Assembly (NCBI GenBank): GCA_934246625.1
Contig: CAKQHZ010000001.1
Coordinates: 434,964 to 498,963, forward strand
Reading direction: 5' to 3'
Source of the DNA: an uncultured Alphaproteobacteria bacterium
GTDB lineage: Bacteria > Pseudomonadota > Alphaproteobacteria > Rs-D84 > CACZYB01
Length of the DNA: 64,000 bases
Shown here: piece by piece, positions 3,825 through 50,788 of the stretch
Position numbering within the stretch: position 1 is the first letter of the stretch
Layout of the letters: every line of letters starts with the position of its first letter
The notes under the pieces: generated by a model
What the model was told of the DNA's origin: nothing
The model's input: the letters and a program-made list of their open reading frames with translations, nothing else
Database searches by the model: none
Translations under genes and position numbers: made by a program

Positions 3825-3919
3825 TTTTTAATACCTTTGATTTTTAATTTTTTCCCTTGTATTATATCAAAAATTAAGGTAAAAGTAAAAGGTAAAATAA
3901 TTTTTTAAGAGGCGTTTTT

Positions 3920-6635: not shown

Positions 6636-7154
6636 TTATTTCCTTAAATATATATAAAATGCGCCATCGTTTTTGTTTTGGTATGGAGCATATTCGACAT
6701 AAAGAATCATTTGCCTTATATCCATTGCATTTATCCATTTTGGAAATTCTTTCCTTATGGTGCCGGTTTGTTTTTCGGGGTTGCCACGACCTGTAATAAC
6801 AAGTAATGTGCGATTATGAGAAGTATAATTTTGTGATACAAATTTTATAAACGTTTCGTATGCAGATTGAAGTGTGTGTCCGTGTAAATCAAGTGTAGAA
6901 TCGGGCTTTTTTAAATCTTTTTTGATTTTTTTTGCAATGGTTTTATCAATACGAGATGTGTCGGATATTGATAAATCGTTTTCAATTATATGGCGTTCTG
7001 GTTTGCGTTTTACATCTTCGGTTGAAATAAATGTGATTTCAATGGTGTTTTCTTTTTTCCTTGGGATTTTATTAGGTATAACTAAATTCCCCTTTGTTTT
7101 TGATTTAAGGGGCTTTATTGTTGATATAATTTCTTCCCATAATGATTTAGTCAT
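6636..7154 (-). CDS. Smr (small MutS-related) domain protein (172 aa)
   Basis: LDLHGHTLQSAYETFIKFV...LLVITGRG matches the Smr-domain hallmark (DLHG). Confidence 0.7.
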   Translation of the reverse strand: MTKSLWEEIISTIKPLKSKTKGNLVIPNKIPRKKENTIEITFISTEDVKRKPERHIIENDLSISDTSRIDKTIAKKIKKDLKKPDSTLDLHGHTLQSAYETFIKFVSQNYTSHNRTLLVITGRGNPEKQTGTIRKEFPKWINAMDIRQMILYVEYAPYQNKNDGAFYIYLRK

Positions 7155-7194
7155 ACGATAAATATAATATTTTTTGTTTATAAAAGCAAATAAA

Positions 7195-7222
7195 AATCCC
7201 TCTTTTGCAAGAGGGACTTATT
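7195..7222 (-). terminator. Rho-independent terminator downstream of dnaN (hairpin TCCCTCTT/AGAGGGAC plus T-run on minus strand)
   Basis: 8-bp GC-rich stem visible at 7195-7222. A-run on plus strand gives a T-run on minus. Confidence 0.5.
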
Positions 7223-7238
7223 AAATCAAAGTTATGAA

Positions 7239-11396: not shown

Positions 11397-12155
11397 TTAT
11401 GCCTCCTTTTTAACTTCAACTTTTGGGTTAAGTGCTGAACCAAGGTCTGCACCAGAATTTTTAAGTTGTTCTTCAAGTCCATCAAGTATTGCTTTTACAG
11501 CCAAATCACAGTAAAGTTTGATTGCCTTTATAGCATCATCGTTTCCTGGGATTGGGTAGTTTACATTTGATGGGTCAGAATTTGTATCACAGATTGCAAC
11601 AACTGGAATATCAAGTTTGTTTGCTTCTGTAATAGCTAAGTCTTCTTTTGATGCATCAATAACAAATATTATATCAGGAGCACCGTTCATATCGATAACA
11701 CCGCCAAGAACTGCTTGTAATTTTTTGTGTTCAAGTTCCATCTTTGCGATTTCTTTTTTTGTGAAACCAAGATTTTCAGCGTTAGCAATATCTGCTTCTA
11801 ATTTTTTAAGTTTTTTGATTGAGTTTACAACAGTTTTCCAGTTTGTAAGCATACCACCCAACCAACGTGTGTTGATGTAGTATTGTCCGCACATTTCAGC
11901 TGATTCTTTTACAATGTCTTGAGCTTGTCTTTTTGTGCCTACGAATAAGATTTTTCCGCCGTTTGCAGCAGTATTTCTTAATGCAGTAAGACCAGCATGA
12001 AGCATTGGAACTGTTTTTTGTAAATCAATAATGTGAATCTTATCTTTTACACCAAAGATGTATGATGCCATTTTTGGGTTCCAACGACGTGTGTGGTGAC
12101 CAAAGTGGCAACCTGCTTCGATAAGTTCTTTCATTGTAAATTTAGGGAATGTCAT
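11397..12155 (-). CDS. rpsB: 30S ribosomal protein S2
   Basis: MTFPKFTMKELIEAGCHFGHHTRRWNPKM... is the canonical uS2 N-terminus. rpsB-tsf synteny. Confidence 0.95.
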   Translation of the reverse strand: MTFPKFTMKELIEAGCHFGHHTRRWNPKMASYIFGVKDKIHIIDLQKTVPMLHAGLTALRNTAANGGKILFVGTKRQAQDIVKESAEMCGQYYINTRWLGGMLTNWKTVVNSIKKLKKLEADIANAENLGFTKKEIAKMELEHKKLQAVLGGVIDMNGAPDIIFVIDASKEDLAITEANKLDIPVVAICDTNSDPSNVNYPIPGNDDAIKAIKLYCDLAVKAILDGLEEQLKNSGADLGSALNPKVEVKKEA

Positions 12156-22336: not shown

Positions 22337-23014
22337 ATGACAGATAAAAAATGGAAAAATAAGCATTATGAAAATACAGATGTTAAAAAAGAATCTGAGT
22401 GTGGTTGTAAGTGTGGTGAAAAATGTAATTGTGAAAAGGATAAATGTGCATCTGGAAATTGTGAATGTGGAAAGGATTGTAAGTGCCATCATGAACATCA
22501 TTGCAATGATTGTGGTGAAGGTGTTGAATGTCCAGATAATGGTTGTGAAAAGGAATTTGATAAAATTGAAAATTTAAAGGCTGAAGTTGCTTCTTGGCAA
22601 GAAAAGTATATAAGGACTTTGGCTGATTGTGAAAATGCAAAACGTCGTGCCGATATTGATGCAAAAAATATGATTGATTATAAAATCGCAAAATTTGCAA
22701 AGGATATGTTGCCTTTGGCTGATAATATTGCTTTGGCTTTGGCTTCTATTGAAGGAAAAGTTGATAGTAGTGTTATTGAAGGTTTGAAATCTATACAATC
22801 TGGTTTTATTAGCGCATTAGAAAAAAATAATATTTGCAAAATTAAAACTGTGGGTGAAAAACTTAATCCTCAGGAACATTGTGTTGTTATGCAAGTTGAT
22901 GACCCAAATGTAGAAGAAGGTGTTGTTGCACGTGAGCTTCAAGCTGGTTATAAGTTGGGTGATAAGGTTATTAGAGAAGCAATGGTCGCAACTTCAAATG
23001 GAAAAAAGAACTAA
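22337..23014 (+). CDS. grpE: Nucleotide exchange factor GrpE with an about 60-aa Cys/His-rich metallothionein-like N-terminal extension
   Basis: GrpE core ...ENLKAEVASWQEKYIRTLADCENAKRRADID... onward. The N-terminus is CGCKCGEKCNCEKDKCASGNCECGKDCKCHHEHHCNDCGEGVECPDNGC. SD AAAGGAA 6 nt before ATG 22337. The ORF track begins at an upstream TTG. Confidence 0.85.
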   Translation: MTDKKWKNKHYENTDVKKESECGCKCGEKCNCEKDKCASGNCECGKDCKCHHEHHCNDCGEGVECPDNGCEKEFDKIENLKAEVASWQEKYIRTLADCENAKRRADIDAKNMIDYKIAKFAKDMLPLADNIALALASIEGKVDSSVIEGLKSIQSGFISALEKNNICKIKTVGEKLNPQEHCVVMQVDDPNVEEGVVARELQAGYKLGDKVIREAMVATSNGKKN

Positions 23015-23747: not shown

Positions 23748-24056
23748 ATGATGAAAAAATTTCTATTATTTTTTTCTATTTTATTTTGTGTATTTTTCAA
23801 AGTGAATTCTTCCGTTTATGCAACTGTAAGCAGCAATTCTCTTGAAAAAATTCTATTTCAATATTGTGTTCCAAAAGAAGGAAATTGTGATGTAAAAGCC
23901 ACATATAAAAACGGTAAATGTATTTGTCCTGGTGATAAATTATATATGGACAGAGAATGTTTTAAACCTGTTTGTCCTTCTGGAACTTATATCTATTATA
24001 GTAACGACACAGATTCTTGTGGTGCGGGAAATTACAGAACAAAAGTCAGAAATTAA
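23748..24056 (+). CDS. Small secreted Cys-rich protein (102 aa) with a QYCVPxEGNCDVKATY module
   Basis: Signal peptide. 10 Cys in about 75 mature residues. Paralogous to 43731..44147. Confidence 0.7.
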   Translation: MMKKFLLFFSILFCVFFKVNSSVYATVSSNSLEKILFQYCVPKEGNCDVKATYKNGKCICPGDKLYMDRECFKPVCPSGTYIYYSNDTDSCGAGNYRTKVRN

Positions 24057-24150
24057 GTTTATGGGAGAACTACTTTCATAATTTTTGTCTGTTCTCTCTC
24101 CATTTAAAAATTTGTCTTTTATATAATAATCAAACAAAAAGGAGAAGACT

Positions 24151-25227
24151 ATGAACAATAAAAAATATATAATATCGGTAATAGGTGTGTTATCTTTTGT
24201 TGGAATTGCACACGCTGCTATTTTTCAATGCAGAACTTGTGAAGAGGGGACTTATGGTGATGGAACATCTGTAAGTTGCACAAAATGTCCGACTGGGGCA
24301 GTTTGTCCTGAGGGAACTGGAGCACCAATTTATTTATCAAATTATAAAGATAAGTTATTATCTGTATGTGGTGAGATAGGTAAGGAAATTGCAATAGATA
24401 CAGGTTTTTCTTCCAGTAATTTTGTTTCAGAAATGATTGATAAACAAAAAGTAAAAATAAATTATAGTGGAGATATAATTAAAAAGGGAGAAAGTGGTTA
24501 TAATTATGCAAGGGCATATTATGAAGTTAGTTGTTATGATCTTGATGGTTATTATGCAAGTAGTGGATATAAAGCTATTACAGATTTTATTCAAAGCAAA
24601 ATATGTAATGATGAATCAGAAGTAAAAAGTCATTTAGAACCTATGAGTTCATCATCAACTTTAACACCTGGAATATATAGGATTGATGTAGCTGGTGCCG
24701 GTGGTGGCGGTGCAGGTGGAAATGCTTGTGGATGGTGTTATGGAGCTGGTGGAGGTTATGGAGGTAATGGTGATTTGCAGACTAGATATATATATTTAGT
24801 TGATAATCAGCCTTATAATTATGTTGTTGGTGCTGGTGGTGGTAATGGTTGTGGTTCTGGTTGTAATCATCGTGGAGTAAATGGTAAGAAAGGTGGAACA
24901 TCATCCTTTACTTTGTTAGGAAATGTTTTTGAGGCATTAGGTGGAGATGGTGGAGAATCTGCACATAGTGGTTGTGATGTGTCTAATGGTAAAAATGGTG
25001 CTGCTGCTGGTAATGGTTTAGGTGGTGTTGGTGGTGAGAATAGATATGGTAACAAATGTGCTTATGATGGAAATACTGGTTGGGTAAAGATTTATCAAAT
25101 TGGTATGAGAAAAACCGGTTGTCCTTCTTTAAGACCATCTACTTCTTCTGGTGGATGTTCTTCAGGTGGTTATTTTGGCGGTTGCTCTACAGGTGGTTAT
25201 TTTGGTGGTTGCTCAGGAGGATACTGA
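24151..25227 (+). CDS. Secreted Cys/Gly-rich protein (358 aa) with an ephrin-receptor/TNFR-like CxxCxxGTY...CxxCPxG repeat, a glycine-rich domain and C-terminal GGYFGGCS repeats
   Basis: Signal peptide ...GIAHA. CRTCEEGTYGDGTSVSCTKCPTGAVCPEGTG. Gly-rich stretch VAGAGGGGAGG...GGGYGGNGD...VVGAGGGNG... C-terminal GGYFGGCSTGGYFGGCSGGY. Confidence 0.75.
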   Translation: MNNKKYIISVIGVLSFVGIAHAAIFQCRTCEEGTYGDGTSVSCTKCPTGAVCPEGTGAPIYLSNYKDKLLSVCGEIGKEIAIDTGFSSSNFVSEMIDKQKVKINYSGDIIKKGESGYNYARAYYEVSCYDLDGYYASSGYKAITDFIQSKICNDESEVKSHLEPMSSSSTLTPGIYRIDVAGAGGGGAGGNACGWCYGAGGGYGGNGDLQTRYIYLVDNQPYNYVVGAGGGNGCGSGCNHRGVNGKKGGTSSFTLLGNVFEALGGDGGESAHSGCDVSNGKNGAAAGNGLGGVGGENRYGNKCAYDGNTGWVKIYQIGMRKTGCPSLRPSTSSGGCSSGGYFGGCSTGGYFGGCSGGY

Positions 25228-30989: not shown

Positions 30990-31592
30990 ATGAATACAAA
31001 AATTATTTCAACAGGTTTAATCCTATCTTCACTTATACTTATGGCTCCTAAAGCAGATGCTTACTATATCGGTGCTTCTGTTGGTTCTTCAAAAACAAAA
31101 GTTAGTGTGGAAGATAAAATTAATATGCAAAGTAAAACTGCTTTTACAGTTTCTACTGGTATGGAAATTCCTCTACCTCTTATTCCAATAAGAGCTGAAG
31201 TTGAATATTTACAACTTAATTCTGATAAAGATGGAGCAGATTTGAAAACTTATGGAGTTGGTGCAAATGCTTATGTTGGATTGCCACTTCTTCCTATTAT
31301 TAAACCTTATGTTGGTATGGGATTGGGTTATTTAAAACAAGATCTAAAAATGCCTGCTGATTTTGATGATGATGATATTTATGAATCAAAAGTTAAGACA
31401 AAATCAGATTGGACAGTTGTTCCACAATATATGATTGGTCTTGATGTATCACTTCCTATTATCCCAGTTGCTGGTGGTGTTGAATATAGATATATCGATT
31501 CTAAATTCAAAGGATTTAATGATACAGAAGAAAATTTTAATGCAAAATCAAAAATCCATACTTTCTTAATGAAAGCAAGAATTAAATTCTAA
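30990..31592 (+). CDS. Small outer-membrane beta-barrel protein (Omp25/Omp31/OMP_b-brl-like, 200 aa)
   Basis: Signal peptide ...APKADA. Alternating hydrophobic beta-strand pattern. C-terminal aromatic ...ARIKF. Confidence 0.65.
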   Translation: MNTKIISTGLILSSLILMAPKADAYYIGASVGSSKTKVSVEDKINMQSKTAFTVSTGMEIPLPLIPIRAEVEYLQLNSDKDGADLKTYGVGANAYVGLPLLPIIKPYVGMGLGYLKQDLKMPADFDDDDIYESKVKTKSDWTVVPQYMIGLDVSLPIIPVAGGVEYRYIDSKFKGFNDTEENFNAKSKIHTFLMKARIKF

Positions 31593-31615
31593 GATTTAAT
31601 TTTTGGAAAATTAAA

Positions 31616-31648
31616 ACTGTCATATTTTTAGTATGGCAGTTTTTTTTA
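31616..31648 (+). terminator. Rho-independent terminator after the OMP gene (ACTGTCATA-N7-TATGGCAGT plus T8)
   Basis: 9-bp stem with one G-U pair, followed by TTTTTTTT. Confidence 0.7.
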
Positions 31649-31774
31649 TTGCCTTTTTGTTTCAAAAATGATAAATTTTTTTTAGATGTAATGAATAATT
31701 ACATTTAGTATCAAGTGTATAGTGATACGGAGCTTTGAACGGCTTTTTTACTTACAAGGGTATGAATTTTGTGT

Positions 31775-31797
31775 GATACCGTTTGGTATCTTTTTTT
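31775..31797 (+). terminator. Second terminator-like hairpin (GATACC-GTTT-GGTATC plus T7) inside the long intergenic region
   Basis: 6-bp stem and 7 Ts, about 125 nt after the previous terminator. May close a short untranslated transcript. Confidence 0.4.
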
Positions 31798-31961
31798 ATA
31801 CCCAAAGCCCCAACCTTTGTTGGTTGGGGAGCTGTGGTTATACAACAGGAATATAGTCTTTGCTATAGTCTAAAAGCCTCAGAGTCATTGTAAGTATGAT
31901 TGTTCAACTGCCCGACCACTATCTTTGATATGTGGGTTTATTTTATTAAAGGGAGAAAAAT

Positions 31962-32528
31962 ATGAAAATCATGAACAAAAAATTACTTTTATTATATATG
32001 TCTTTATATCCTTGTATAACAAATGCAAATGTATATATGTGTTTGCGATGTCCTGTTGGAACTTATGGTGATGGAAAATCATCATATTGTTCACCTTGTC
32101 CAAAAATAGATGGAGCACATTATTTGGAAGATTCAAAGAATTGTGAATGGGAGTGTGATGAAGGTAAAGTTGTTGTTGCAAAATATGCGAATGGTGGAGG
32201 TTGTTGCACTGAACCAGCTAAACCAAAATGTCCTTCTGTTAAAGTTTATGTTTTCGGTAACTGTTCAGGTTCGGGTTCTCATGGAGGATCTTGTCAACTT
32301 CAATATTCAAAAACTTTGGAATGTGGAGAAAGTTTTCAAAATGATGGGAGTGCGACAAATACACCAAATGGACAATATGATTGTATAACGATGGCTTGTA
32401 GAAGCGGAGGTTTTGTTAAAAATATTAATGGAGAAATGTGGTGTTATAAAGACTCCTATGATATGAAAAAAAATAAAAATGGACGTCATTATGATAGGTC
32501 AGGTGATGCTAAATGTCTAAAAGAGTAA
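31962..32528 (+). CDS. Secreted Cys-rich protein (188 aa) with ephrin-receptor/TNFR-like CLRCPVGTYGDGKSSYCSPCP repeat
   Basis: Signal peptide. 25 Cys. SD AAAGGGAGA. Motif shared with 24151..25227 and 44255..44908. Confidence 0.7.
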   Translation: MKIMNKKLLLLYMSLYPCITNANVYMCLRCPVGTYGDGKSSYCSPCPKIDGAHYLEDSKNCEWECDEGKVVVAKYANGGGCCTEPAKPKCPSVKVYVFGNCSGSGSHGGSCQLQYSKTLECGESFQNDGSATNTPNGQYDCITMACRSGGFVKNINGEMWCYKDSYDMKKNKNGRHYDRSGDAKCLKE

Positions 32529-33665: not shown

Positions 33666-33785
33666 TTGAAACCTCCTTGGTTAGTTGAACATACTTTATA
33701 TATAGCTTTTTTTTAGGAGTTTTTCAATATAAATAATTTTTGATTTTTATCTATTTTTATGTTATTATTGAAAATAAAGGAAAGA

Positions 33786-35114
33786 ATGGGAATGAAAAAA
33801 ATTTTATGTTTTTTGATGGTTTTTACTTTTGCCGTTGAGGGCTTTTCTGCTCCACGAAAGAAGGCTGGCTCTTCTAAACGTGTAGCAACAGCAGGTAAGA
33901 TAAGGACTGCTTCTTCAACCACAATAACGGCCACAAATTCAACAGAGGAAGATTCTTTTGAATCTTGTATGGATAATATTTGTAAATCAGAACTTTATGA
34001 AGATAAGGGTAGATGTAGATGTTCATCTCAACTTGGAAGAATTGAAAAGGTTCTTCGTGATATTGAAAAAATCCAAAACCAAGCAGATGAAGATAATAAG
34101 TTGATGGAAACTTTGATGAATGTTTCAAATACTGCAAATGTAGATGATACTGTTGGAAGTGTTTATGATAATATTAACAGTATTGAAAAAAAGGCAAAAA
34201 CTATTTCTGCAAGGGCTGTGGATAAAGATTTACTTGTGATGGAAGGATTGCCTTTGTATGAAGTAGGATTAAAGAAATGTAAGGGCTTTTTGGATACACT
34301 TTCATCAAAAGATAAGGATAAAAAGAAAGAAGAATATACAAAACTTATTGAAGGAGATTGTTCTGCTTATACAACTATTTTAAAAGAAAAGGCAGATAGT
34401 GCACAAAATCTTTTGGTGCAAGCACAAAAAAATCGCGAAAAGTTTGATGAACAGGAATATAAAAAGCGTAATCAACTTGATACTAATGCTTGTTATGTAG
34501 AATATGAAGCATGTGCAAAAACCGAATGTGGCACAAACTTTAAGTATTGTAAGGATAGTGCAAAACAAGCGACCGTCCTTAAAAAGTGTCAAGCTGTGAA
34601 TTATGGTAAATGTGAAGATAATAAAACAACGGTTATTGCCGATGTAAAAAAGTATATTGCAAAGGAGCTTGAAAAGGTAAGATTAGTTGATAATTGTAAG
34701 GCTGCAATGGGTCATCTTCAAAATGGAAAATGTTTGTTTAAGGTTATGTATATTGCAGATAAATGTTCAAGTGGTAGTGGTTGTGGATCTTCTCAAGTTG
34801 TATGGGCGACACCACGTCAAAAATTCAAATGTGATGATACACGCGGTAGTTTTAAAGAGCTTATTGCTGGATGTTATGAAAGTTGTTATATTATTGGACC
34901 AAATGATGAAAAGATTTATAAGGGAACAAACCATAGTGATAATATGGGTGGTCAAATTGTTGGTGCAATATTTTCTTTGGGTATAAGTGTTGCACATACA
35001 CTTCCTGGATGTGTAGAAAAAAAGAATATTGATACTTTCTATACTCCTGCGGCTCCTGATGGTTGGGGCGAAGATGGTTATCCAACGAATCCAGAATATA
35101 AGGGAATTTTATAA
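33786..35114 (+). CDS. Secreted Cys-containing coiled-coil protein (about 442 aa) with post-signal KR/S/T-rich tract
   Basis: Signal peptide MGMKKILCFLMVFTFAVEGFSA, then PRKKAGSSKRVATAGKIRTASSTTITATNSTEED. About 28 Cys. Start chosen at ATG 33786 (SD AAGGAAAG) rather than the upstream ATG 33759, which lacks an SD. Confidence 0.65.
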   Translation: MGMKKILCFLMVFTFAVEGFSAPRKKAGSSKRVATAGKIRTASSTTITATNSTEEDSFESCMDNICKSELYEDKGRCRCSSQLGRIEKVLRDIEKIQNQADEDNKLMETLMNVSNTANVDDTVGSVYDNINSIEKKAKTISARAVDKDLLVMEGLPLYEVGLKKCKGFLDTLSSKDKDKKKEEYTKLIEGDCSAYTTILKEKADSAQNLLVQAQKNREKFDEQEYKKRNQLDTNACYVEYEACAKTECGTNFKYCKDSAKQATVLKKCQAVNYGKCEDNKTTVIADVKKYIAKELEKVRLVDNCKAAMGHLQNGKCLFKVMYIADKCSSGSGCGSSQVVWATPRQKFKCDDTRGSFKELIAGCYESCYIIGPNDEKIYKGTNHSDNMGGQIVGAIFSLGISVAHTLPGCVEKKNIDTFYTPAAPDGWGEDGYPTNPEYKGIL

Positions 35115-36452
35115 ATGAAAAAATTTTTAGTATTTGTTGTTTCTTTTGTGGTTGTATTAGGTAGTTTTTTTGATGTGGCTTTTTCTCAAAGAGCAAGGAG
35201 AAGACAAGCATCATCAAGAAAAACAAAACGTGCTGGGAATATTAAAAGGGCGGCAACTTCTGGTGGAAGTGGGGCAAAATCTTCTGGAAATACAAAAAAG
35301 GCAACTGGTTCAAAATCAAAAAGTAAAAGTTCCTCTTCTTCAAAAAGTGGGTCTTCCTCCTCCTCTTCATCATCATCATCTTCTTCTGATGAAGGGTTGT
35401 CAGCTGAACTTAAATGTCTTCAACAAAATCTTTCTTCTCTTTTAGGAGATAAATGTAAGTTTGTTGTGGATTCTGATATAACTTCTGCTTTGGAAGGAGA
35501 AGATTTATATTGTGTTTATAATTATAAGGATAGTGGTAAAACCTCAAGTGTTTATAATTATTATTTGAATGCTTATTATGGTGTTTCAGAAACATCTGTA
35601 AAGTCAGATACTTCCATCGTTAATGTGAAAAATAGTTCTAAAAATGCACTTAAGTATTATCAATATTTGATTGATGAAATTGCAAATGGAACATTAAAGG
35701 AAAGTAAAATTCTTGATAGTGTTACTGAAAAGGTTTTGGAAAATTCAAATGTTGCAAATGATGTGCAAGGTGTTATTGAAAAAAAAAGTGTTGAAACTGT
35801 GCCATTATCAATGAGTATTGTTTCTTCGGATTTGGAAAATTGCACAAAGGCGACGAAGGCAATTTTAAAAGAGTGTGGTGCGATTGGTAATCAAACAGTT
35901 AAAAAGAAAATTTCTGAAAGTTGCACCGCTTATAATGCAGTATTGTTAAAACTTGCTGGTAATAAAAAGACAGAAGCTCTTGGTTTCGAGGGTGAAATTA
36001 TAAATGCATTGAAGGAACGTGCAAATGCAGACTTTTATGATTATAAAGAGCTTGTTGAACAACAGGCTGAAAAGTTGAAACTTGATGAACAATATGCAGA
36101 AACACAAAAGAAAACAAAGCTTTTGACACTTAAGAATAAGCGTGATGATACTGCAAGTAAATTGGTTGAATTGCGAAATAGGATAAAAGGACTTAATTCG
36201 GATGATTCTGCAAAGGAAACATTTGAAAGTCAGGCAAATACTTATGCAAGCTCACTTTGTCTTTTGGATCAACAAATTTCAAGTTTGGATAGCACTTATA
36301 AACCATCTGATAATTTAGCAAAGTGTTCAGATGATGATAAAAAAAATGATAGTGATAAAAAAGATGTAGATAAAAATAAAACATCAGAAAGCGGAAATAC
36401 TTCTTCTGGTTCAAATGATACCGCTGGTAAAGCTAATATGGATGCAAAATAA
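35115..36452 (+). CDS. Secreted protein (445 aa) with a KR-rich tract, a poly-Ser run and coiled-coil regions. Translationally coupled to the upstream gene.
   Basis: ATG overlaps the upstream stop (TAAATG). Signal peptide, then QRARRRQASSRKTKRAGNIKRAATSGG..., [29 protein letters not shown]. Confidence 0.65.
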   Translation: MKKFLVFVVSFVVVLGSFFDVAFSQRARRRQASSRKTKRAGNIKRAATSGGSGAKSSGNTKKATGSKSKSKSSSSSKSGSSSSSSSSSSSSDEGLSAELKCLQQNLSSLLGDKCKFVVDSDITSALEGEDLYCVYNYKDSGKTSSVYNYYLNAYYGVSETSVKSDTSIVNVKNSSKNALKYYQYLIDEIANGTLKESKILDSVTEKVLENSNVANDVQGVIEKKSVETVPLSMSIVSSDLENCTKATKAILKECGAIGNQTVKKKISESCTAYNAVLLKLAGNKKTEALGFEGEIINALKERANADFYDYKELVEQQAEKLKLDEQYAETQKKTKLLTLKNKRDDTASKLVELRNRIKGLNSDDSAKETFESQANTYASSLCLLDQQISSLDSTYKPSDNLAKCSDDDKKNDSDKKDVDKNKTSESGNTSSGSNDTAGKANMDAK

Positions 36453-42924: not shown

Positions 42925-43380
42925 ATGGAAAAAAATGTATTATATATTGATGATATAAAAAAGATATTGCCACACAGATATCCTTTTTTGCTTGTTGATA
43001 GAGTTATTGATATTGTGCCTGGACAATCTGGAACAGGTATTAAAAATGTAACAGTTAATGAAGAATTTTTTAATGGACATTTTCCTTCTTCTCCTGTGAT
43101 GCCTGGGGTTTTAATGTTGGAAGCAATGGCTCAAACAGCGGTGCTTGTTGGTGCAACAGATGAAACTGAGGAATTAAAGGGACAAATCGTATTTTTAACA
43201 GGAATTGATGATGCAAAATTTAAAAATAGAGTTATTCCTGGTGATCAACTTCATATCAAAGTTGAAAAATGTTCACAAAGAGGTGCTTTTGAAAAATGGA
43301 AAGCTGCAATCTATGTTGATGACAAACTTTGTGTATCTGCAACTTTGAGTGCTATGAAATCAGGTAAAACAAAGGTTTAA
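42925..43380 (+). CDS. fabZ: 3-hydroxyacyl-ACP dehydratase FabZ (151 aa)
   Basis: IxxxLPHRYPFLLVDRV...HFP..PVMPGVL..EAMAQ catalytic motif. Confidence 0.95.
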   Translation: MEKNVLYIDDIKKILPHRYPFLLVDRVIDIVPGQSGTGIKNVTVNEEFFNGHFPSSPVMPGVLMLEAMAQTAVLVGATDETEELKGQIVFLTGIDDAKFKNRVIPGDQLHIKVEKCSQRGAFEKWKAAIYVDDKLCVSATLSAMKSGKTKV

Positions 43381-43406
43381 ATTTTTATTATTTCAGTTAT
43401 TAAAGA

Positions 43407-43435
43407 AGGGTGTTAATTTTTTAACACCTTTTTTT
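43407..43435 (+). terminator. Rho-independent terminator after fabZ (GGTGTTAA-TTTT-TTAACACC plus T7)
   Basis: Perfect 8-bp stem followed by TTTTTTT. Confidence 0.75.
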
Positions 43436-43730
43436 GTTGCTTAAATCTTTATTATGTAATATCATAAAATTAGATTTGGATTTATCCAAGTTTAGCGTCC
43501 ATAGGTGGACGTGGGACTGTCGTAAGTTCTTTATATACTGCCGTATGTTATTTTACATACGATCTTTGTCCCCACCTTTAGTGGGGAGTCTTTGGTGTAT
43601 GTCCAGAGGATATTTTTATATTCTTAAAGACCAAGGAAATCATCTTGCAGTATATATGATTTACGAACTCCCCGCCATTTATGTGATAAATGGGAAAAAT
43701 TTTGTGATACACAAAAAAGGGGAAGAAACC

Positions 43731-44147
43731 ATGAAAAACTTATCTAAAGTACTTTGTATTTGTGCGGGGGCTATCTCGGCAAATCCTATTAACCTTCAGG
43801 CTAAAACTTTGCTTGAAACCTTGACTCAATACTGTGTTCCGACGGTTGGCAACTGCGACAAAAAGGCTACCTACAATACCTCTGGCAACTATTGCGATTG
43901 TGCCAACATCAACAAATTCTATAACTCTTCGAATCGTTCTTGCGAGAACTGTATCCTCGGCTCTTTCGCAACCTCAGACTATAAAACTTGTGAGCCTATT
44001 CATTGCCCTGACGGCTATGTTGCGACTTTGATTTCCAAAGGGGCGTGTCCAGATGGCTATACTTTGCAACAAATCAATGTGGCTTCGGGTTGTGGCGAGG
44101 GTTATGCGTTGAAGAAGTATAATCCGGCGACGAAGAGTTTTAATTAA
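43731..44147 (+). CDS. Secreted Cys-rich protein (138 aa), paralog of 23748..24056 (QYCVPTVGNCDKKATY module) but with a GC-rich codon style
   Basis: SD AAGGGGA before ATG 43731. Signal peptide MKNLSKVLCICAGAISA. The ORF body is about 43% GC against a genome background of about 30%. The upstream part of track ORF 43434..44147 is rejected as leader. Confidence 0.7.
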   Translation: MKNLSKVLCICAGAISANPINLQAKTLLETLTQYCVPTVGNCDKKATYNTSGNYCDCANINKFYNSSNRSCENCILGSFATSDYKTCEPIHCPDGYVATLISKGACPDGYTLQQINVASGCGEGYALKKYNPATKSFN

Positions 44148-44254
44148 AGATATGGGCGGGAGTTTTTTATCATAGTCTTGCTTCCGCCCTCCCAGATTGG
44201 CACTTTTGAAGAGGGGGAGGTGTCAAGGAAGAAACACCCTCGAAGGAGAAAAAA

Positions 44255-44908
44255 ATGAAAACCATGAAGAAAAAGAAATTAGCGGTGATAGGGATAGCGG
44301 GAATGCTCTCTGCAACACCTGCCTCCGCTCAAACATTTTATCAATGTATGCCTGTAAAGTGTAAAGCAGGAGAGTATGTAAGTGGAAGTAGTTGTGAGCG
44401 TTGCACTGGAGGTTATCGTTGTCCAGGAGATAATAAAAGGTATGCGTGCACAGGCGAATGGGAATATGCAACACCAGGAAGTTCATACTGCTCTACCTTT
44501 GGCCCAAGTGATGTTCGTATTTGGGTTGGTGGTGGCTGTGCTGATAGAGATAGAAACGATCAAGCTCTAATGTCTAAGTTAGTGCCAATTACATCTTTTT
44601 CTACAAAGAAGGAAAATGGTCAAACAAAATATATTACAAACTTTAGTATTCTATCAGACAGAAACAAATATGATAGATCAGGTTTCTTTAATTGTTTAGA
44701 TAATAATTTTAAAAAAAAATATACTTCACAAGAACAATGGTGTAAATATGCAAGTATTACTCTTTTAACAACTCCAAATGCTGGTGGTTCATCAGACTTT
44801 ACCGTAAAACAATATAGTAAAGTATATGGAACGTTAGAGTTTCGATCTAGTTTTGAGTGTTTAAGATTAGGTCCAGGCGGTGGTTGTGCAAATAAATGTA
44901 ATAATTAA
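44255..44908 (+). CDS. Secreted Cys-rich protein (217 aa) with ephrin-receptor/TNFR-like CKAGEYVSGSSCERCTGGYRCPG repeat. Compositionally mosaic.
   Basis: Strong SD GAAGGAGA. Signal peptide ...ATPASA. The 5' 330 nt are about 43% GC and the 3' 320 nt about 25% GC. Confidence 0.7.
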   Translation: MKTMKKKKLAVIGIAGMLSATPASAQTFYQCMPVKCKAGEYVSGSSCERCTGGYRCPGDNKRYACTGEWEYATPGSSYCSTFGPSDVRIWVGGGCADRDRNDQALMSKLVPITSFSTKKENGQTKYITNFSILSDRNKYDRSGFFNCLDNNFKKKYTSQEQWCKYASITLLTTPNAGGSSDFTVKQYSKVYGTLEFRSSFECLRLGPGGGCANKCNN

Positions 44909-44940
44909 AAAAAAGCCCTCAAATGAGGGCCTTTTTAATT
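44907..44940. terminator. Bidirectional rho-independent terminator (GCCCTC-AAAT-GAGGGC) between convergent genes
   Basis: Perfect 6-bp GC stem flanked by A8 and a T-run. Lies between the 44255..44908 stop and the 44948..45352 (minus) stop. Confidence 0.75.
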
Positions 44941-44947
44941 TTGAGGT

Positions 44948-45352
44948 TTATTCCCAACCTGATGTATCGCTTAGACCACCGTATGTTTGTTGGATATTGT
45001 TTTTACCTTCTGGGTCAGCCATATATGATACGATAAAGCCAGCAACTCCAAGAAGAACAAGTGCAACGATTAACATAAATAATTTTTTCCAGTCAATGTC
45101 TCCTTTTTCGATAGCATTCCATGCATATCCTAAAAATGCAACAGCAGCAACAACGAATAATGCATTTCTTGTATATGCGAATAGTTGGCTTCCACGTTGT
45201 AAGAATCTTTCAAAAGGACCAGTTTTTCCGGTTGTTACAATCTCACTTCCAGTTTGTGCAAGAACATCAACAGGAACCATAAACATAAATGCAACTAAAA
45301 TACCAAGACATACAAGTGTAGATTTTTTAGTTAAAAATTTGAATATTGACAT
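44948..45352 (-). CDS. virB2: Candidate VirB2/TrbC-family T4SS pilin (134 aa)
   Basis: Long signal peptide ending VDVLA/QTG, then two hydrophobic helices separated by a short charged loop (…ALFVVAAVAFLGYAWNAI-EKGDIDWKK-LFMLIVALVLLGVAGFIVSYMA). This is VirB2-like topology and size. Confidence 0.5.
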   Translation of the reverse strand: MSIFKFLTKKSTLVCLGILVAFMFMVPVDVLAQTGSEIVTTGKTGPFERFLQRGSQLFAYTRNALFVVAAVAFLGYAWNAIEKGDIDWKKLFMLIVALVLLGVAGFIVSYMADPEGKNNIQQTYGGLSDTSGWE

Positions 45353-47061: not shown

Positions 47062-47850
47062 TTAAAACGTATAATCTGTATATTTGAATTGACGGCGAGC
47101 TTCTTTGTTGGCTTCTAGGATATCGAAAGCCTGTTGTTTTTTGTTTTCCAATGTAAGTTTTCCGTATTCGGCAGTAAGTCCAGTTGGAAGTTCCTCTTCC
47201 ACATCTAAAAGCCATTGATTTGGTTCAACATTTGGTTCCCCATATTTTGATAAAACGAAATACCAAAAGGCTCTTCTTCGTTCGTCCCTTTGATATTGGA
47301 AATTTTTTGCATCGCCATATTTTTTATTTACATCATTTGTATATTCGACCTTGAAAACTTTGTTGTCTGTAATAGGGCTTGTAAAATAAACATTGATGTC
47401 TTCGTTTGTATCGTGTTTTTTGAATGAAACTTTATAGATGTATTCCATCTTGTCCTTTTTTGCAAGACCCTTGATGCATGCCTTTAGATTTTCAGGGATA
47501 AAAATTTCATAAGAGCGACATATTGAGTCATAGTTGAATGAAAAATATTCTGGAATTTTGTATTCTATATCAACAAGTTTGTATTTGCGTTCCTTTAATA
47601 CTTCACGAACCTTTTTATAATCCATACCAAGCATTACACCAGATATGTCAAAAGCCTTTACACGTTCGTTTAGGTTTGAGGTGATGACTTCCTCTTGACC
47701 TTCTTCAACGTAATCTTCGTATTCTTCCTCTTCACCATTATCACCAATATCTTCTACTGCGTATTCTTCGTCCTCCATATCCATAAATTCTTGGGAATAT
47801 GAAACCGAGCTTGTGAAAATAAATATCAGTGTTAATAAAATTTTAAGCAA
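47062..47850 (-). CDS. Secreted hypothetical protein with N-terminal acidic tract (262 aa)
   Basis: Signal peptide, then EFMDMEDEEYAVEDIGDNGEEEEYEDYVEEGQEE. No recognisable domain. Confidence 0.5.
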   Translation of the reverse strand: MLKILLTLIFIFTSSVSYSQEFMDMEDEEYAVEDIGDNGEEEEYEDYVEEGQEEVITSNLNERVKAFDISGVMLGMDYKKVREVLKERKYKLVDIEYKIPEYFSFNYDSICRSYEIFIPENLKACIKGLAKKDKMEYIYKVSFKKHDTNEDINVYFTSPITDNKVFKVEYTNDVNKKYGDAKNFQYQRDERRRAFWYFVLSKYGEPNVEPNQWLLDVEEELPTGLTAEYGKLTLENKKQQAFDILEANKEARRQFKYTDYTF

Positions 47851-47903
47851 AGTTTTCTCCTTCTTAAAACATTATAATATATACTTTTTGAAAAGTAAAT
47901 TGA

Positions 47904-48749
47904 TTACTTTGTTTTGAATTCGGTGATGATTTCATTTATTTTGTTTGATTTTAAAAGTTCACCTAATTTTATTTCAATAAAGTTTTTAAATGGATAAATT
48001 TCCTTATCTGAAGTGATTTTTGCAAATGTCTTTTTCTTGTTTAATGCCATAAAGTAATTTATTTTGTTTGGGTATTTTATTATTTTAAGGCTTTTGATTT
48101 TTGGATTATTTTTATTATCGTTTAGGTAGTTATTTACAAATTCCATTGTGGAAATAAGAAAACTTTTGTTATTAAAAATTGTTTCCATAGCGGAGTTTAT
48201 ATTTGCAATTTTTATTGATGATAGTTGTAGGTTTGGAATTGTGAAACCTTCTAATTCTATTGCATTATTTGTTTGTGATAGTTTTGATATTGTTTCAAAT
48301 AAATCCTTTGAAATTGTATTGTTGTTTGGAATAGAAGATTTATCAATAACAAGGACAATATTGTCAGTGTAGATTGGTTGAGAAATATAATCTAAATATT
48401 CAAGATTGTTTTCGTCAAATGTTATGCCTATGATTATATCAGGTGTGTTATTGGATAGGTAAAGCATAGATGTTTGTAATGCTTCGTTATAATTTGAATA
48501 TGGTGTGTATTTTGTTTTTACATTTGTGTTTTTGAATATTTCATTAAGGATACTGTGGCTTGCACCATAAGAAGTTGAGTTATAATAGTTTTTATTTGAT
48601 TTTATGTTAGGATTTAAAGTTTGCATACCAATAGGGGCTGTGTATTGAATGTATAGAGGTTCATTTGTTTGTGCAAAAGATAAACTACTTATCATTAAAA
48701 ATATAAGTATTAAAAGATAGTTTAAAATTTGTTTGCCCCCTCGAACCAT
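47904..48749 (-). CDS. Secreted Asn-rich hypothetical protein. Weak resemblance to family-3 periplasmic solute-binding proteins.
   Basis: Signal peptide. ...PDIIIGITFDENNLEYLDYISQPIYTDNIVLVIDKSS loosely resembles the SBP_bac_3 core. The assignment is weak. Confidence 0.4.
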   Translation of the reverse strand: MVRGGKQILNYLLILIFLMISSLSFAQTNEPLYIQYTAPIGMQTLNPNIKSNKNYYNSTSYGASHSILNEIFKNTNVKTKYTPYSNYNEALQTSMLYLSNNTPDIIIGITFDENNLEYLDYISQPIYTDNIVLVIDKSSIPNNNTISKDLFETISKLSQTNNAIELEGFTIPNLQLSSIKIANINSAMETIFNNKSFLISTMEFVNNYLNDNKNNPKIKSLKIIKYPNKINYFMALNKKKTFAKITSDKEIYPFKNFIEIKLGELLKSNKINEIITEFKTK

Positions 48750-48751
48750 TA

Positions 48752-49864
48752 TTAACCATCCTCTTCATATAATAAAATCGTGATACATAAAAGTATTGTA
48801 ACAGTTGGGATTGTGATGTTTGCAATTATGATAGGGATTCTTCCTGATGTGCCGATTGCACGAACGACTTGGTCCATAAAAAATGCACCAAACCCGATTA
48901 AAATACCACCTGTAAGTTTGAATATAAGGTTTGCTTGGTTTCGCTTTGGTGATATTGAAAATATTGCAGAAATTAAAAGCATTGCACAAAGTGTTAATGG
49001 TAAGAATAATAATGTATAAAAATATGATAAATGTTTTCGTGCAGAGAAGCCTGATTTTTCAAAAAATCTTATGAAACTTGGAAGTTCCCAAAATGAAAAA
49101 CTTTCTGGTTCAGAAGAATTTTCTTCGATTTTATCGGTTGTAAGCAATGTTGGATAATCGTATATATCAAATTCATCAATGAAAAGTTGAGGGTCAATCA
49201 TCTTTACATTATTTAAAATAAGTTTGTGATTTTTAAGAATTGCAGATTTTGCCTCTATACGTTTTAGGAAATTATTTTTTAAATCAGTTATAAAAATTGT
49301 TAAATTTTTTGCGTTAAGTTCTACACCTTCCTTTTTTATAAATTCGGCATAAATAAATGATTGGGTAAGGTCGGATTTTTCCTTTAACCATAAACCATTT
49401 TGTGAAAATAAAAGTGGGTTAGAATGTGTTATTTCATATTTATAACTTAGTCTTGAAATTCGTTTTTGTAAGGCCGAACCAATAGGGCTTAGGACAGTCA
49501 TATTAAGTAAGCCGATTGTAATACATACGCCAAGAATTGGAGTTAAAAATTGCCATACGGAAATTCCAATGGAACGAATAACGGTTAGTTCTGATGTCCT
49601 TGATAATTTCCAAAAGGTTAATATTCCAGCAAGTAAAACAGATAATGGAAGTACCGTTGTAAGAGTGTATGATATATCAAGTAAAGCATATTGAATTGTT
49701 ATGCTGAACGGAATATCCTTTACTTTGTTTGCAAATTTTTTGGAATTGTCGATTATTGAAAATAGGGCGATTATTCCAGATATGCAAAAAAATACAAGGC
49801 TGAATGACTTGATGAAATGGATTGCCAAAAATTTATATAAAATATTATATTTCTTTATTTTCAT
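48752..49864 (-). CDS. lptG: LPS export ABC transporter permease LptF/LptG (YjgP/YjgQ family, 370 aa)
   Basis: Six-TM permease with a central periplasmic beta-jellyroll-like insert. YjgP/YjgQ-type N-terminal helix pattern. Confidence 0.75.
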   Translation of the reverse strand: MKIKKYNILYKFLAIHFIKSFSLVFFCISGIIALFSIIDNSKKFANKVKDIPFSITIQYALLDISYTLTTVLPLSVLLAGILTFWKLSRTSELTVIRSIGISVWQFLTPILGVCITIGLLNMTVLSPIGSALQKRISRLSYKYEITHSNPLLFSQNGLWLKEKSDLTQSFIYAEFIKKEGVELNAKNLTIFITDLKNNFLKRIEAKSAILKNHKLILNNVKMIDPQLFIDEFDIYDYPTLLTTDKIEENSSEPESFSFWELPSFIRFFEKSGFSARKHLSYFYTLLFLPLTLCAMLLISAIFSISPKRNQANLIFKLTGGILIGFGAFFMDQVVRAIGTSGRIPIIIANITIPTVTILLCITILLYEEDG

Positions 49865-49906
49865 AATTCTATTTATACTATATTATTTAATAAAATAAAG
49901 ACTTTT

Positions 49907-50788
49907 TTACACAGATTTAAAGGAAACAATTTTATCCTTGTCAACAATGGATAAAAAATAACCGCCAAGATATCCTGCAGTTCTTATATTTATTCCATTG
50001 ATTGTTTCGTTAAGGGCAAAGATTTTGTCGTTAAGGTTGCTTATCGGATATGATATTTCCACAAGATGTAAAACTGTGCCATTGAAAATTGCAGTAGAAT
50101 CAATTACTTCGTAAAGAGGTATTTGCAATCTGTGTAATGCACTTTTAAGCCATGTGTTTGTGATTGTTTCTGATGTAGCAATTACCATTATACTTCGGTC
50201 AAAATTCCAATGATTTGAGCTGTTAGCAATAAGGTATTCTGGTGTTTTGTCGTAATCTTCGATTAGTGGAATTTTGTTTATGATTTTTACATTTTGTTTT
50301 TCAGGAGCAAGCATACCCATCCACCAAACATCTTTTGGTGATGTTTTTGTTGCGGGAATTACTGCCATTAAGTTGTTAGAGTGGGTTATGTTTGAAATGA
50401 TTTCGCTGTATTTTGAAAAGTATTTATATTTTATATTGTCGAAAAGTGGGAAAAGGTTGTTTATATAAGATGATGTTGATGAAAGTTCATCTTTTAACAC
50501 AAGACCCAATTCAATATTTCGTGATGTTAAGTTTATAAGTTCAATTAAGCCAGAAGTTGTTGATAAAGTTTGTTTATCGTATTTACGTTGGCTTGTTATC
50601 TTTTCAATACTTAAAGAAAGGGATTTTGATAAATCAGATATTGATAAATCAGTTTTGGTATTTAATTCAGCCATAAGTTCAGTTCTTTTTTTTATAAGGT
50701 CGTATAATGAAATATCAATTATATCTATTGTTGAATTGATTTCTTGTATTTCCCCTTCGTTTAAAGGTTTTATTTTCCTTATAAGCAT
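49907..50788 (-). CDS. Hypothetical protein (293 aa). The N-terminal 60 aa are weakly chorismate-mutase-like.
   Basis: Long ORF with coding-like composition. No confident domain. Confidence 0.45.
   Translation of the reverse strand: MLIRKIKPLNEGEIQEINSTIDIIDISLYDLIKKRTELMAELNTKTDLSISDLSKSLSLSIEKITSQRKYDKQTLSTTSGLIELINLTSRNIELGLVLKDELSSTSSYINNLFPLFDNIKYKYFSKYSEIISNITHSNNLMAVIPATKTSPKDVWWMGMLAPEKQNVKIINKIPLIEDYDKTPEYLIANSSNHWNFDRSIMVIATSETITNTWLKSALHRLQIPLYEVIDSTAIFNGTVLHLVEISYPISNLNDKIFALNETINGINIRTAGYLGGYFLSIVDKDKIVSFKSV

Follow-up and report, generated by a model that had tools for sequence, protein, structure and literature searches.

A two-gene cassette for exported cysteine-rich proteins, with a near-invariant 5' unit, a strain-variable C-terminal domain and a candidate new RNA leader, in uncultured gut bacteria

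What is the role of a small, predicted exported, cysteine-rich protein whose beginning is repeated at other places of the same genome segment and whose end is not? This question is raised by an open reading frame (ORF) in the 64,000-nucleotide stretch of contig CAKQHZ010000001.1 analysed here (the whole stretch is called the window below). The ORF, on the + strand at 44255..44908, starts with ATG and encodes 217 amino acids (aa); a previous reading, made from the sequence alone, had presented it as the third secreted, cysteine-rich protein with ephrin/TNFR-like repeats in the window, and the ORF itself is real. We find that this gene (hereafter the target) is gene B, the second gene of a conserved two-gene cassette with a small Cys-rich gene, A, upstream, and that its near-invariant N-terminal Cys module is followed by a C-terminal domain that is strongly different between otherwise near-identical strains, with a ratio of nonsynonymous to synonymous substitution (dN/dS) above 1. 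The A-B pairing, the near-invariant 5' unit, the hypervariability of the C-terminus between strains and a structured RNA leader are all features beyond the sequence-only reading. We think, with a probability of roughly 0.55, that B is made conditionally, together with a conserved partner, A, that it is exported by Sec and rich in disulfides, and that it acts as a diversifying binding protein, either secreted or at the surface.

The signals for translation and export are those that had been noticed before. The Shine-Dalgarno (SD) sequence of B is indeed strong (GAAGGAG at 44242..44248, + strand, 6 nt ahead of the ATG), and the protein begins with MKTMKKKKLAVIGIAGMLSATPASA followed by QTFYQC; the n-region has 5 Lys, residues 9-20 make up a hydrophobic core (LAVIGIAGMLSA, mean Kyte-Doolittle 2.2), and A-S-A stands at positions -3..-1. 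In a rule-based reading, the classical features of a Sec/signal peptidase I substrate are thus all present (KKKK, the h-region LAVIGIAGMLSA and ASA before Q), in agreement with the cleavable signal peptide claimed earlier, and cleavage is predicted at 25/26. No lipobox ([LVI][ASTVI][GAS]C) occurs in the target protein, nor is there a second hydrophobic stretch in its mature part (the top 19-residue window scores 0.43). The 13 Cys are all in the mature part (residues 31, 36, 47, 50, 56, 65, 79, 95, 147, 163, 202, 211 and 215). The protein finishes in GPGGGCANKCNN, as had been said; the description of its C-terminal half as Lys/Asn-rich holds only moderately, the last 132 residues having 12 K and 11 N but S and G being equally common. 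Three segments can be distinguished, all on the + strand: codons 1-25 (44255..44329), the Sec-type signal peptide, whose DNA is 92-100% identical among paralogues and which has dN=0 in orthologues; codons 26-86 (44330..44512), the conserved Cys module (C31, C36, C47, C50, C56, C65, C79), a degenerate ephrin-receptor/TNFR-like repeat with dN/dS 0.33; and codons 87-217 with the stop (44513..44908), the strain-hypervariable C-terminal domain. The AlphaFold2 (AF2) models are all-beta at low confidence, with a predicted local distance difference test score (pLDDT) of 43.4 from a 14-sequence orthologue/type-B alignment and 41.2 from a 42-sequence family alignment, and below 50 across residues 26-86.

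How differently these segments evolve is seen in pairwise Nei-Gojobori estimates among five orthologues with the same C-terminal domain type as the target (type A, see below). The signal peptide has dN 0 and dS 0.06, the Cys module dN 0.05 and dS 0.15 (dN/dS 0.33), and the C-terminal domain dN 0.116 and dS 0.079, a mean ratio of 1.47, with single pairs at 2.0, 2.6 and 6.8 and window-versus-other pairs at 0.8-1.5. In the neighbouring genes dN is 0.014 (virB2) and 0.007 (tsaB, dS 0.032), so that dN of the C-terminal domain is roughly 10 times that of flanking genes. The variable sites fall in three patches (about gene nt 290-330, 390-420 and 480-540), the Cys and framework residues being kept. 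Counts of exactly identical sequences give 4 contigs for the target, 18 for A and 134 for FabZ. The idea that the domain is the target of a diversity-generating retroelement, suggested by its Asn/Lys-rich variable end and by an Mtd_N gene near a paralogue, was rejected for want of both a template repeat and an adenine bias: substitutions in the variable domain span all base classes, and no second copy of 44500-44908 is present in the window. As to the Mtd_N gene, one of the contigs carrying relatives (these contigs are numbered L001 onwards, and related proteins P0022 onwards), L005, encodes at 3684-4814 (- strand), about 660 nt upstream of a cassette, a 376-aa protein with an Mtd_N domain (37 bits), named after the major tropism determinant of Bordetella phage. 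The 12.6 kb available around this gene contain no template/variable repeat pair, and no repeat ties it to B.

Beyond these orthologues, the C-terminal ends of gene-B proteins can be sorted into types A-F (these letters are distinct from the gene labels A and B), the target being of type A. At least four groups of C-terminal domains, with no detectable mutual sequence similarity, stand behind a shared spacer, signal peptide and first Cys module. Types C and F have two to four ephrin-like repeats and a C-terminal domain, type D a short Cys-rich domain, and type E the glycine-rich domain PF21722. Types A and B are homologous (hhalign probability 96.6%), with Cys95, 147, 163, 202, 215 and framework motifs conserved between them; hhalign found no relationship of types A/B to C, F, D or E (all probabilities <13%). 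A profile search of the PDB with the C-terminal domain of the target returned nothing. A phmmer search with target residues 81-217 against 1.84e9 cluster representatives gave 0 matches; as the target's own orthologues were not returned either, the 50%-identity cluster representative is evidently not of type A, and this null is limited accordingly.

The 5' unit in front of these domains is, by comparison, almost frozen. Positions 12-14, 22, 24-31, 33, 36 and 41 are invariant across 42 sequences, and between the window and the sampled loci of the species group the spacer is 98-100% and the signal-peptide codons 92-100% identical. The identity of the spacer holds even though, in L009, the A gene is only 56-66% identical and B cannot be aligned past codon 26-44. 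Many contigs (L001, L002, L006, L014, L016, L017 and L019) end inside the 5' unit, which is expected because it is a dispersed repeat. The clearest case of exchange is the rpsD locus, where L002 (type B) and L009 (the glycine-rich type E) agree at 95.7% in the first 184 nt, have no homology through the rest of B, and are 99.6% identical from the stop codon on, over 2.2 kb; a whole C-terminal domain has been exchanged at one chromosomal locus. At the TraT locus, the proteins of L005 (198 aa) and L007 (243 aa) differ, by sequence, by about two ephrin-like repeats, fewer in L005. In L007 (6001-6732), the lpxD-fabZ-A flank of the window, 98.4% identical up to 44385, is joined to a type C B gene, and the downstream flank differs from that of the window (169-aa gene, TraT, accB, accC). 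The window arrangement itself is known from independent assemblies, three in all (L013, L018 and the window), and contigs with an alternative A' gene end inside the repeat. There is no inverted copy of the 5' unit within the window and no recombinase consistently adjacent to the cassettes; the rearrangements of flanks between assemblies are compatible with homologous recombination or chimeric assembly as well as with site-specific switching.

Is the expression of this cassette regulated? Upstream of gene A lies a structured leader RNA, the 5' untranslated region (UTR) of the A-B cassette (43470..43716, + strand), recognised by minimum-free-energy (MFE) folding, covariation and a covariance model (CM). 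A second copy (31682..31947, + strand; CM and MFE), which ends in a hairpin and U-rich tract at 31916-31947, is found 5' of a B-only paralogue at 31962-32528. The segment 43470-43735 folds with -90.4 kcal/mol (z=-6.75) and the segment 31682-31966 with -85.4 kcal/mol (z=-4.65), 0 of 200 shuffles being as stable in either case. Both folds recover a hairpin at the 5' end (P1), a multi-helix domain that is closed by a long-range helix (P3), an optional hairpin Hx, H4 (CCCC...GGGG) and H5 enclosing H6; H7 (AUCAU...AUGAU) was found by comparing leaders. Upstream of A these elements lie, on the + strand, at 43474-43491 (P1), 43496-43511 (P2), 43520-43525 (5' strand of P3), 43542-43561 (Hx), 43570-43588 (H4, pairing the C-rich segment C1 with the G-rich arm), 43589-43596 with 43630-43637 (H5), 43639-43660 (H7) and 43661-43674 (3' strand of P3 and a second C-rich segment, C2), followed by hairpins at 43675-43693 and 43700-43716. 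This architecture, 250-290 nt long, is conserved 5' of the A gene at 43731, of the B-only gene at 31962 and of cassettes in L003 (~1594-1810), L004 (twice, ~2080-2333 and ~4050-4313), L005 and L009 (~7695-7953), and also 5' of a 143-aa Cys-rich exported gene in L005-L008, with shorter forms in L008 and L010; the coordinates in L005 are ~5218-5422 and 11757-11940 (- strand). The leader is seen ahead of every Cys-rich cassette except a diverged one at 23748, upstream of which the covariance model search detected no copy.

The pairing of this leader is supported by covariation. P3 is complementary in 10/10 leaders with ten different sequences, for instance UCGUAA/UUACGA, UUGAAC/GUUCAA (TTGAAC/GTTCAA in the DNA of the 31682 copy), UUAACAA/UUGUUAA, GUAAGA/UCUUAC, CACAAAA/UUUUGUG and UUAGUCG/CGACUAA, and a descriptor based on P3 gave 0-2 matches per shuffled window. 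In a MAFFT alignment (A6), 90.2% of the cells are paired against 80.6% after shuffling (0/500; slid controls 34-57%), with 4/6 pairs of P3 changed on both sides. In a model-based alignment (A9), 88.9% are paired against 77.2% (0/500; slid controls 35-55%), and 8 pairs have double changes where 3.5 are expected (0/500). A core covariance model (R1) gave 15 strong matches (68-100 bits) in 220 kb, each directly 5' of a Cys-rich exported gene; two of its matches are in the window (43566-43676, 88.4 bits; 31805-31916, 90.9 bits), and the next best window match scores 15.7 bits. At the gathering thresholds of Rfam 15 (4227 families) there is nothing in the window except 3 tRNAs, and at E<=1 nothing in 43350-44300 or 31550-32000. 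We regard the leader as a well-supported candidate for a new cis-regulatory RNA. As to how it might work, the G-rich 3' arm of H4 (e.g. GGUUGGGGAG) can pair either with C1, just upstream, or with C2 (ACUNCCCGACC), a near-duplicate C-rich segment about 100 nt downstream (7-11 bp, with covariation). C2 is directly 3' of P3 and, in several leaders, overlaps the 5' arm of a hairpin with a U-tract after it, as in the leader of the L005 143-aa gene (CCACAC...GUGUGG CUUUUUU) and, similarly, at 31916-31947 in the window. Judging from sequence only, these exclusive pairings may form an antiterminator/terminator or SD-access switch.

Two further observations concern possible regulation in other contigs. 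A 112-nt inverted repeat, 80% complementary, lies in L005 at 4916-5027 and 11995-12106 (inverted), with an additional segment at 5090-5141; it stands 5' of two divergent units of leader and Cys-rich gene, brackets about 7 kb and contains repeated AGAACA-type motifs, and it could be a shared operator/promoter region or an inversion substrate. A 169-aa gene convergent with a type C B gene (L005 6612-7121, - strand, and also in L006-L008) has a sub-threshold match to the OmpR/PhoB-type winged helix (Trans_reg_C, 19.6 bits against a cut-off of 26.2) and may encode a regulator of the family.

The cassette appears to be its own transcription unit, since a terminator-like hairpin with a T-run (GGGTGTTAATTTTTTAACACC TTTTTTT, 43408..43435, + strand; in the scan this stem appeared on the - strand) closes the fabZ unit upstream. 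By eye, a putative promoter can be read at 43437..43465 (+ strand; TTGCTT - 17 nt - TAATAT/TATCAT, uncalled by the consensus scan), and comparable AT-rich -35/-10-like hexamers stand ahead of other leaders too. Gene A (43731..44147, + strand, its true start being the ATG at 43731) encodes a 138-aa exported Cys-rich protein with the motif L..L.QYCVPTVGNC and then CxxC repeats, and is the conserved partner 5' of B. Both A and B have a Sec-type signal peptide and many Cys, their mature N-termini share Y-x-C-[VM]-P ... C on inspection, and the unit is bounded by terminators, that behind B (44915..44936, a G+C-rich hairpin with a T-run after the B stop) being bidirectional and shared with a convergent gene. 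The A-B spacer (44148..44254, + strand) is 107 nt long and 98-100% identical across paralogous loci when each segment is compared separately. It contains, 6-8 nt past the A stop, a conserved hairpin (44154..44189, + strand) with arms GGGCGGGAG ... CUUCCGCCC and a loop with UCAUAGUCUU. One such hairpin is present per cassette in every locus (window, L003-L018), in five sequence variants whose stem is kept by compensatory changes (arm pairs GGGCGGGAG/CUUCCGCCC, GGGAGGAAG/CUUCCUCCC, GGGGUUGAAG/CUUCAACCUC and GGGAGAAC/GUUCUCUC; each z -2.6 to -3.3); it was judged by folding the variants one by one, the MAFFT alignment being out of structural register. As no U-tract follows the hairpin, and as neither a promoter nor a terminator was called by the consensus scan on the + strand of the 107-nt spacer, A and B are probably co-transcribed, and the hairpin may be an intercistronic processing or stability element.

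The pairing of A with B was seen wherever a cassette locus was legible in full. An A gene is found 5' of B in the window (twice) and in L003, L004 (two cassettes in tandem), L005, L007, L008, L009, L010 and L013, that is, in three diverged lineages: the window group (L005, L007, L008, L009, L013), L010 (A 59% identical to the window A), and L003 with L004, from a distant metagenome-assembled genome (MAG; A 47-52% identical). A is conserved, since clustering at 90% identity gives only 6 groups where B gives about 50, and its type is independent of the domain type of B: near-identical A genes accompany type A, C and C' B genes, and similar ones stand ahead of both Gly-rich and non-Gly-rich B. 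This absence of co-variation argues against an immunity role for A. Immediately 5' of the rpsD-locus cassette of L009 lies a gene (6771-7613) for a DsbA/ScsC-like periplasmic thiol-disulfide oxidoreductase, and its position beside a paralogous cassette supports disulfide chemistry. Two oddities of the cassette should be mentioned. P0056 (155 aa, from a 10-kb ENA contig) consists of the N-terminal two-thirds of A with, fused in frame, the final ~70 residues of a B protein of type A, by deletion or recombination between A and B or as an assembly artefact; and in L003 (2360-2900) the A-B spacer is 699 nt long, against the usual about 100-200 nt, through a G+C-rich insertion with several GC-rich inverted repeats (e.g. 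GCCGCCCGGCCCCCGCACCCTTCGGGCGGGCG), which may be a small mobile or repeat element.

Does the family within the window have the size first proposed? Seven Cys-rich proteins in three loci had been grouped together; all-vs-all BLASTP keeps the multigene family and its three loci, but relates only five of the seven ORFs, in two subfamilies. The A-type subfamily consists of 23748 (102 aa) and 43731 (138 aa), which match each other with E=3e-8 and share L..L.QYCVP..GNCD.KATY. The B-type subfamily consists of 24151, 31962 and 44255, whose likeness is limited to the signal peptide and the first ~50 residues; pairwise matches are weak (24151/31962 E=4e-7, 24151/44255 E=9e-5, 31962/44255 E=0.04, computed against a tiny database). 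The Cys spacing said to be common to these three does hold: failure of the spacings to align had been named in advance as the finding that would speak against the proposal, and in an alignment of 11 N-termini they align, C31, C36, G39 and C50 being invariant and C47 at >=90%. The paralogue at 31962..32528 (+ strand; 188 aa, 17 Cys; its orthologue is P0089) has a different signal peptide and no A gene. The diverged cassette at 23748..25227 (+ strand; BLASTP, Pfam) comprises the A-type gene 23748-24056, a hairpin at 24060-24105 (24063-24102 in a narrower delimitation) and the B-type gene 24151-25227 (358 aa), whose C-terminal domain is Gly-rich; it scores 22.5 bits on PF21722 (Gly_rich_2), for which the cut-off is 24.3 and P0048 reaches 25.3, and inspection of the sequences shows glycine-rich B genes in L004, L009 and L010 too.

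By BLASTP, the Cys/His-rich N-terminal extension of GrpE (22337) and the ORFs 33759 and 35115 have no significant similarity to A- or B-types. The extension of this GrpE homologue (22337-23014) is ~70 residues long and metallothionein-like (ECGCKCGEKCNCEKDKCASGNCECGKDCKCHHEHHCNDCGEG...), which is unusual for a cytoplasmic co-chaperone. The other two are neighbouring ORFs at 33759-36452 (451 and 445 aa) with signal-peptide-like N-termini, long Ser/Lys-rich low-complexity tracts and scattered Cys; they have no Pfam match and are weakly similar to each other (E=0.002). The target cassette lies among chromosomal housekeeping genes: upstream of it stand rseP-bamA-skp-ORF-lpxD-fabZ, downstream virB2, tsaB, a PAS-GGDEF gene, lptF/G, virB11 and virB10, the convergent gene at 44948-45352 (- strand) encoding the TrbC/VirB2-type pilin. 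The window as a whole (G+C 28-36%) encodes lipopolysaccharide and outer-membrane biogenesis, VirB-type secretion and rubrerythrin. Between tsaB and virB11/virB10 (47062-50788, - strand) stand, beside lptF/G, three ORFs without Pfam matches (262, 281 and 293 aa), which may encode unrecognised type IV secretion components.

The label ephrin/TNFR-like, given to the target from its sequence, stands only indirectly. The target itself has no Pfam match, even at E<=1, and no NCBIfam match, and membership of PF07699 (Ephrin_rec_like) is not reached (nothing at E<=1; cut-off 23.1 bits); but relatives with the same N-terminal motif do pass PF07699, namely P0022/26/27/35/44 (23.8-26.8 bits), the B protein of L003 (35.9 bits, the match starting at ...FYQCMPC), P0100 (55.6 bits) and P0090 (66.9 bits). 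The target can be aligned with Pfam-passing members over the framework C-x2-C-x2-G-x-[YF] ... C-x2-C (11 sequences), and hhalign of its residues 47-81 against type C paralogue repeats aligns four Cys (P=3.9e-4, with a probability of only 36%). Since the relatives that share its motif pass the model, we consider the target a diverged ephrin-like member by transitive homology and not by a direct test. Ephrin_rec_like is predominantly eukaryotic, and its rare bacterial occurrences have been read as horizontal transfer (PMC6993872); in the literature on bacterial Ephrin_rec_like families, Gly_rich_2 and similar gene families we found nothing directly relevant.

Who carries this family? About 50 relatives of the target were found among 5.8e9 proteins, all in metagenome assemblies, and several record names include Hadza gut samples. 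Seven are full-length relatives (78-88% identical); six are type B proteins, ~50% identical overall, identical at residues 1-90 and then diverged; the remaining ones share only the first 36-44 residues, that is, the signal peptide and AQTFYQCMP..C..G.Y. A scan of GTDB representative genomes gave only 2 loci, both in one MAG labelled "uncultured Bacteroidales", and a scan of JGI metagenomes gave 1 locus; the family is thus rare in these collections, and appears either narrowly distributed or diverged enough that pattern-based scans miss members. The L010 contig has a Mitofilin/Mic60 gene beside a HemY_N gene, a pairing that is an alphaproteobacterial hallmark; the cassette family appears restricted to a lineage of uncultured gut bacteria, probably Alphaproteobacteria. 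A phage or defence origin was considered and rejected: PHROGs, PADLOC and a scan of IMG/VR with the spacer were all negative.

How could these elements work together? We propose that the leader would gate expression by attenuation or SD access in response to some signal; that a single mRNA would serve for the translation of A and B together, both proteins leaving the cytoplasm by Sec and becoming oxidised in the periplasm; and that B would display a rigid, disulfide-bonded, ephrin-like stalk and a variable all-beta head, with A perhaps acting as its constant partner. The head would face an external partner that keeps changing, for instance host antibody, phage or other microbes; it would bind this partner or be recognised by it, and would therefore diversify, by point changes in loop patches and by recombination for which the invariant 5' unit would serve as crossover site. 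The variation pattern does match that of proteins facing an adaptive external partner. Several points nevertheless weigh against this picture of B as a diversifying binding protein. Its function is inferred from the evolutionary pattern alone, and the mean dN/dS of 1.47 also fits relaxed constraint with recombination, dS itself being raised in the domain. No anchor, lipobox or sorting signal was found in B, so that periplasm, surface or medium are all possible locations; "stalk plus head" is a guess, both AF2 predictions being too poor; and the co-transcription of A and B, like any interaction between them, is read from their arrangement only. The junction in L007, the sole fabZ-A flank with a different B gene and downstream flank, could be an assembly chimera across the repeat, or a rearrangement. 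Finally, the probable alphaproteobacterial assignment rests on the Mic60/Mitofilin gene of L010, and the sole GTDB-representative MAG with members bears the label "uncultured Bacteroidales".

The same facts can be read in other ways. Some of them would suit an ordinary structural protein, of the periplasm or the outer membrane, in which the C-terminal half is weakly constrained and changes by neutral drift and recombination, with no external partner: the mean dN/dS is near 1 (0.8-1.5 in the window-versus-other pairs), the composition is biased to low complexity (S, G, K, N) and the domain has no detectable relatives. We think this unlikely, however, as all orthologues examined have an intact ORF, Cys95, 147, 163, 202, 215 and framework motifs are kept between types A and B, the changes sit in three patches instead of being evenly spread, some pairs reach dN/dS 2-6.8, and dN of the domain is ~10 times that of flanking genes. 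One conserved N-terminus with several mutually dissimilar and fast-evolving C-terminal domains, and the replacement of a whole domain at one locus, are also what one would expect of a Sec-exported polymorphic toxin or bacteriocin, the N-terminus serving export or receptor binding and the swapped modules acting against competitors. Yet no candidate immunity gene is present (B is followed by a terminator and then by the convergent virB2, rpsD or 169-aa gene, and the upstream A does not co-vary with the domain type of B), searches of Pfam, NCBIfam, PADLOC, PHROGs and PDB sequences gave no toxin domain or family, and one recurrent C-terminal type is glycine-rich and not a known toxin, which makes a toxin quite improbable in our opinion.

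Programmed antigenic or phase variation, in which recombination at a dedicated site, formed by the spacer and signal-peptide unit in the manner of a shufflon or expression site, would switch the expressed C-terminal cassette, seems to us just as improbable as a toxin. It would account for a 5' unit whose conservation far exceeds that of the coding DNA around it, for contigs (L001, L002, L006, L014, L016, L017, L019) that break exactly inside it, for the same fabZ-A flank with different B genes and flanks in the window and L007, and for the A/B chimera P0056. But any repeat that exceeds the k-mer in length is expected to break contigs, three independent assemblies have the window arrangement, every copy is a complete gene provided with an SD, a start codon and a signal peptide (silent cassettes are absent), no inverted-repeat crossover sites are defined, and no recombinase is consistently adjacent, an XerC/D-like gene near L008 looking like a housekeeping gene. 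Very improbable, to our mind, is a host-mimicking effector acquired from a eukaryote, whose ephrin-receptor/TNFR-like repeats would engage host ligands or receptors. The mostly eukaryotic distribution of Ephrin_rec_like, with its bacterial cases read as horizontal transfer (PMC6993872), and the origin of these bacteria from animal guts (Hadza among the sample names) speak for it; against it, the module of the target is too diverged for the Pfam model, the repeat itself being a generic disulfide scaffold; G+C does not differ from that of the genome around it, the family is bacterial in its signal peptides and operon structure, and the searches made gave no eukaryotic relative. We keep to a diversifying, exported binding protein as the preferred reading of B.

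Among known systems, several have features in common with this one. The CxxC-xxG-x-Y periodicity of the target is that of PF07699 (also GCC2_GCC3) and of the TNFR-like families PF23091 and PF00020, but here as one degenerate repeat-and-a-half in a small bacterial protein predicted to be exported to the periplasm, and not in the ectodomain of a eukaryotic receptor. Paralogues carry PF21722 behind the same kind of N-terminal module, where the target has instead a domain without detectable relatives. A conserved signal peptide before a hypervariable Cys-rich mature part is known from the conotoxin superfamilies of cone snails, and variable lipoproteins with a conserved 5' UTR and signal peptide from the Vlp/Vsp/Vsa families of Mycoplasma; the present family is similar in its almost frozen signal-peptide DNA, its mature C-terminus with dN/dS >1 and its many paralogues per genome. 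It differs from both by attaching whole dissimilar domains and by its upstream partner gene and RNA leader, and from Vlp/Vsp/Vsa in that the target is not a lipoprotein and that no phase-variable repeat tract or invertible promoter was found. In Helicobacter pylori (babA/babB) and Neisseria (opa), paralogous outer-membrane adhesins recombine through conserved 5' ends; dispersed paralogues, conserved 5' ends, mosaic alleles and different genes at one locus between strains are found here as well, but there is no beta-barrel or autotransporter anchor, and the whole mature C-terminal domain is exchanged. With the polymorphic toxins (Rhs, contact-dependent inhibition (CDI), MafB) the family has in common a conserved N-terminal part and interchangeable C-terminal domains; unlike them, the target is small, predicted to be Sec-dependent, and lacks a downstream immunity gene, a recognisable toxin domain and a dedicated secretion partner. 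The leader, for its part, is like those of riboswitches and attenuation systems in being a long 5' UTR with a multi-helix domain closed by a long-range helix, exclusive pairings, a terminator-like hairpin ahead of the SD and a tie to one gene family; unlike them, it precedes genes for exported Cys-rich proteins rather than metabolic genes, and it has no match in Rfam 15.

This leads us to a more speculative idea, which we hold only tentatively and would sooner expect to fail than to hold: the leader of ~250 nt (43470-43716, 31682-31947) may represent a new, riboswitch-like class of RNA, responsive to a ligand or factor, that switches on polymorphic exported Cys-rich binding proteins in uncultured gut Alphaproteobacteria, while the spacer and signal-peptide unit doubles as crossover site for the shuffling of C-terminal domains between loci and strains. 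If this were true, leader and crossover unit would together make a regulated, recombining system of surface variation of a kind not yet described in bacteria. The leader is absent from Rfam and its signal could be sought directly, its regulon being obvious because it is so tightly linked to one gene family. The ephrin-receptor/TNFR-like repeats, held to be essentially eukaryotic, here provide a family of secreted proteins in bacteria with its constant scaffold, and the variable end of these proteins carries an arms-race signature, in a gut lineage that is uncultured and little studied. Such a family may offer a handle on the way in which such bacteria interact with host immunity, phages or neighbours.

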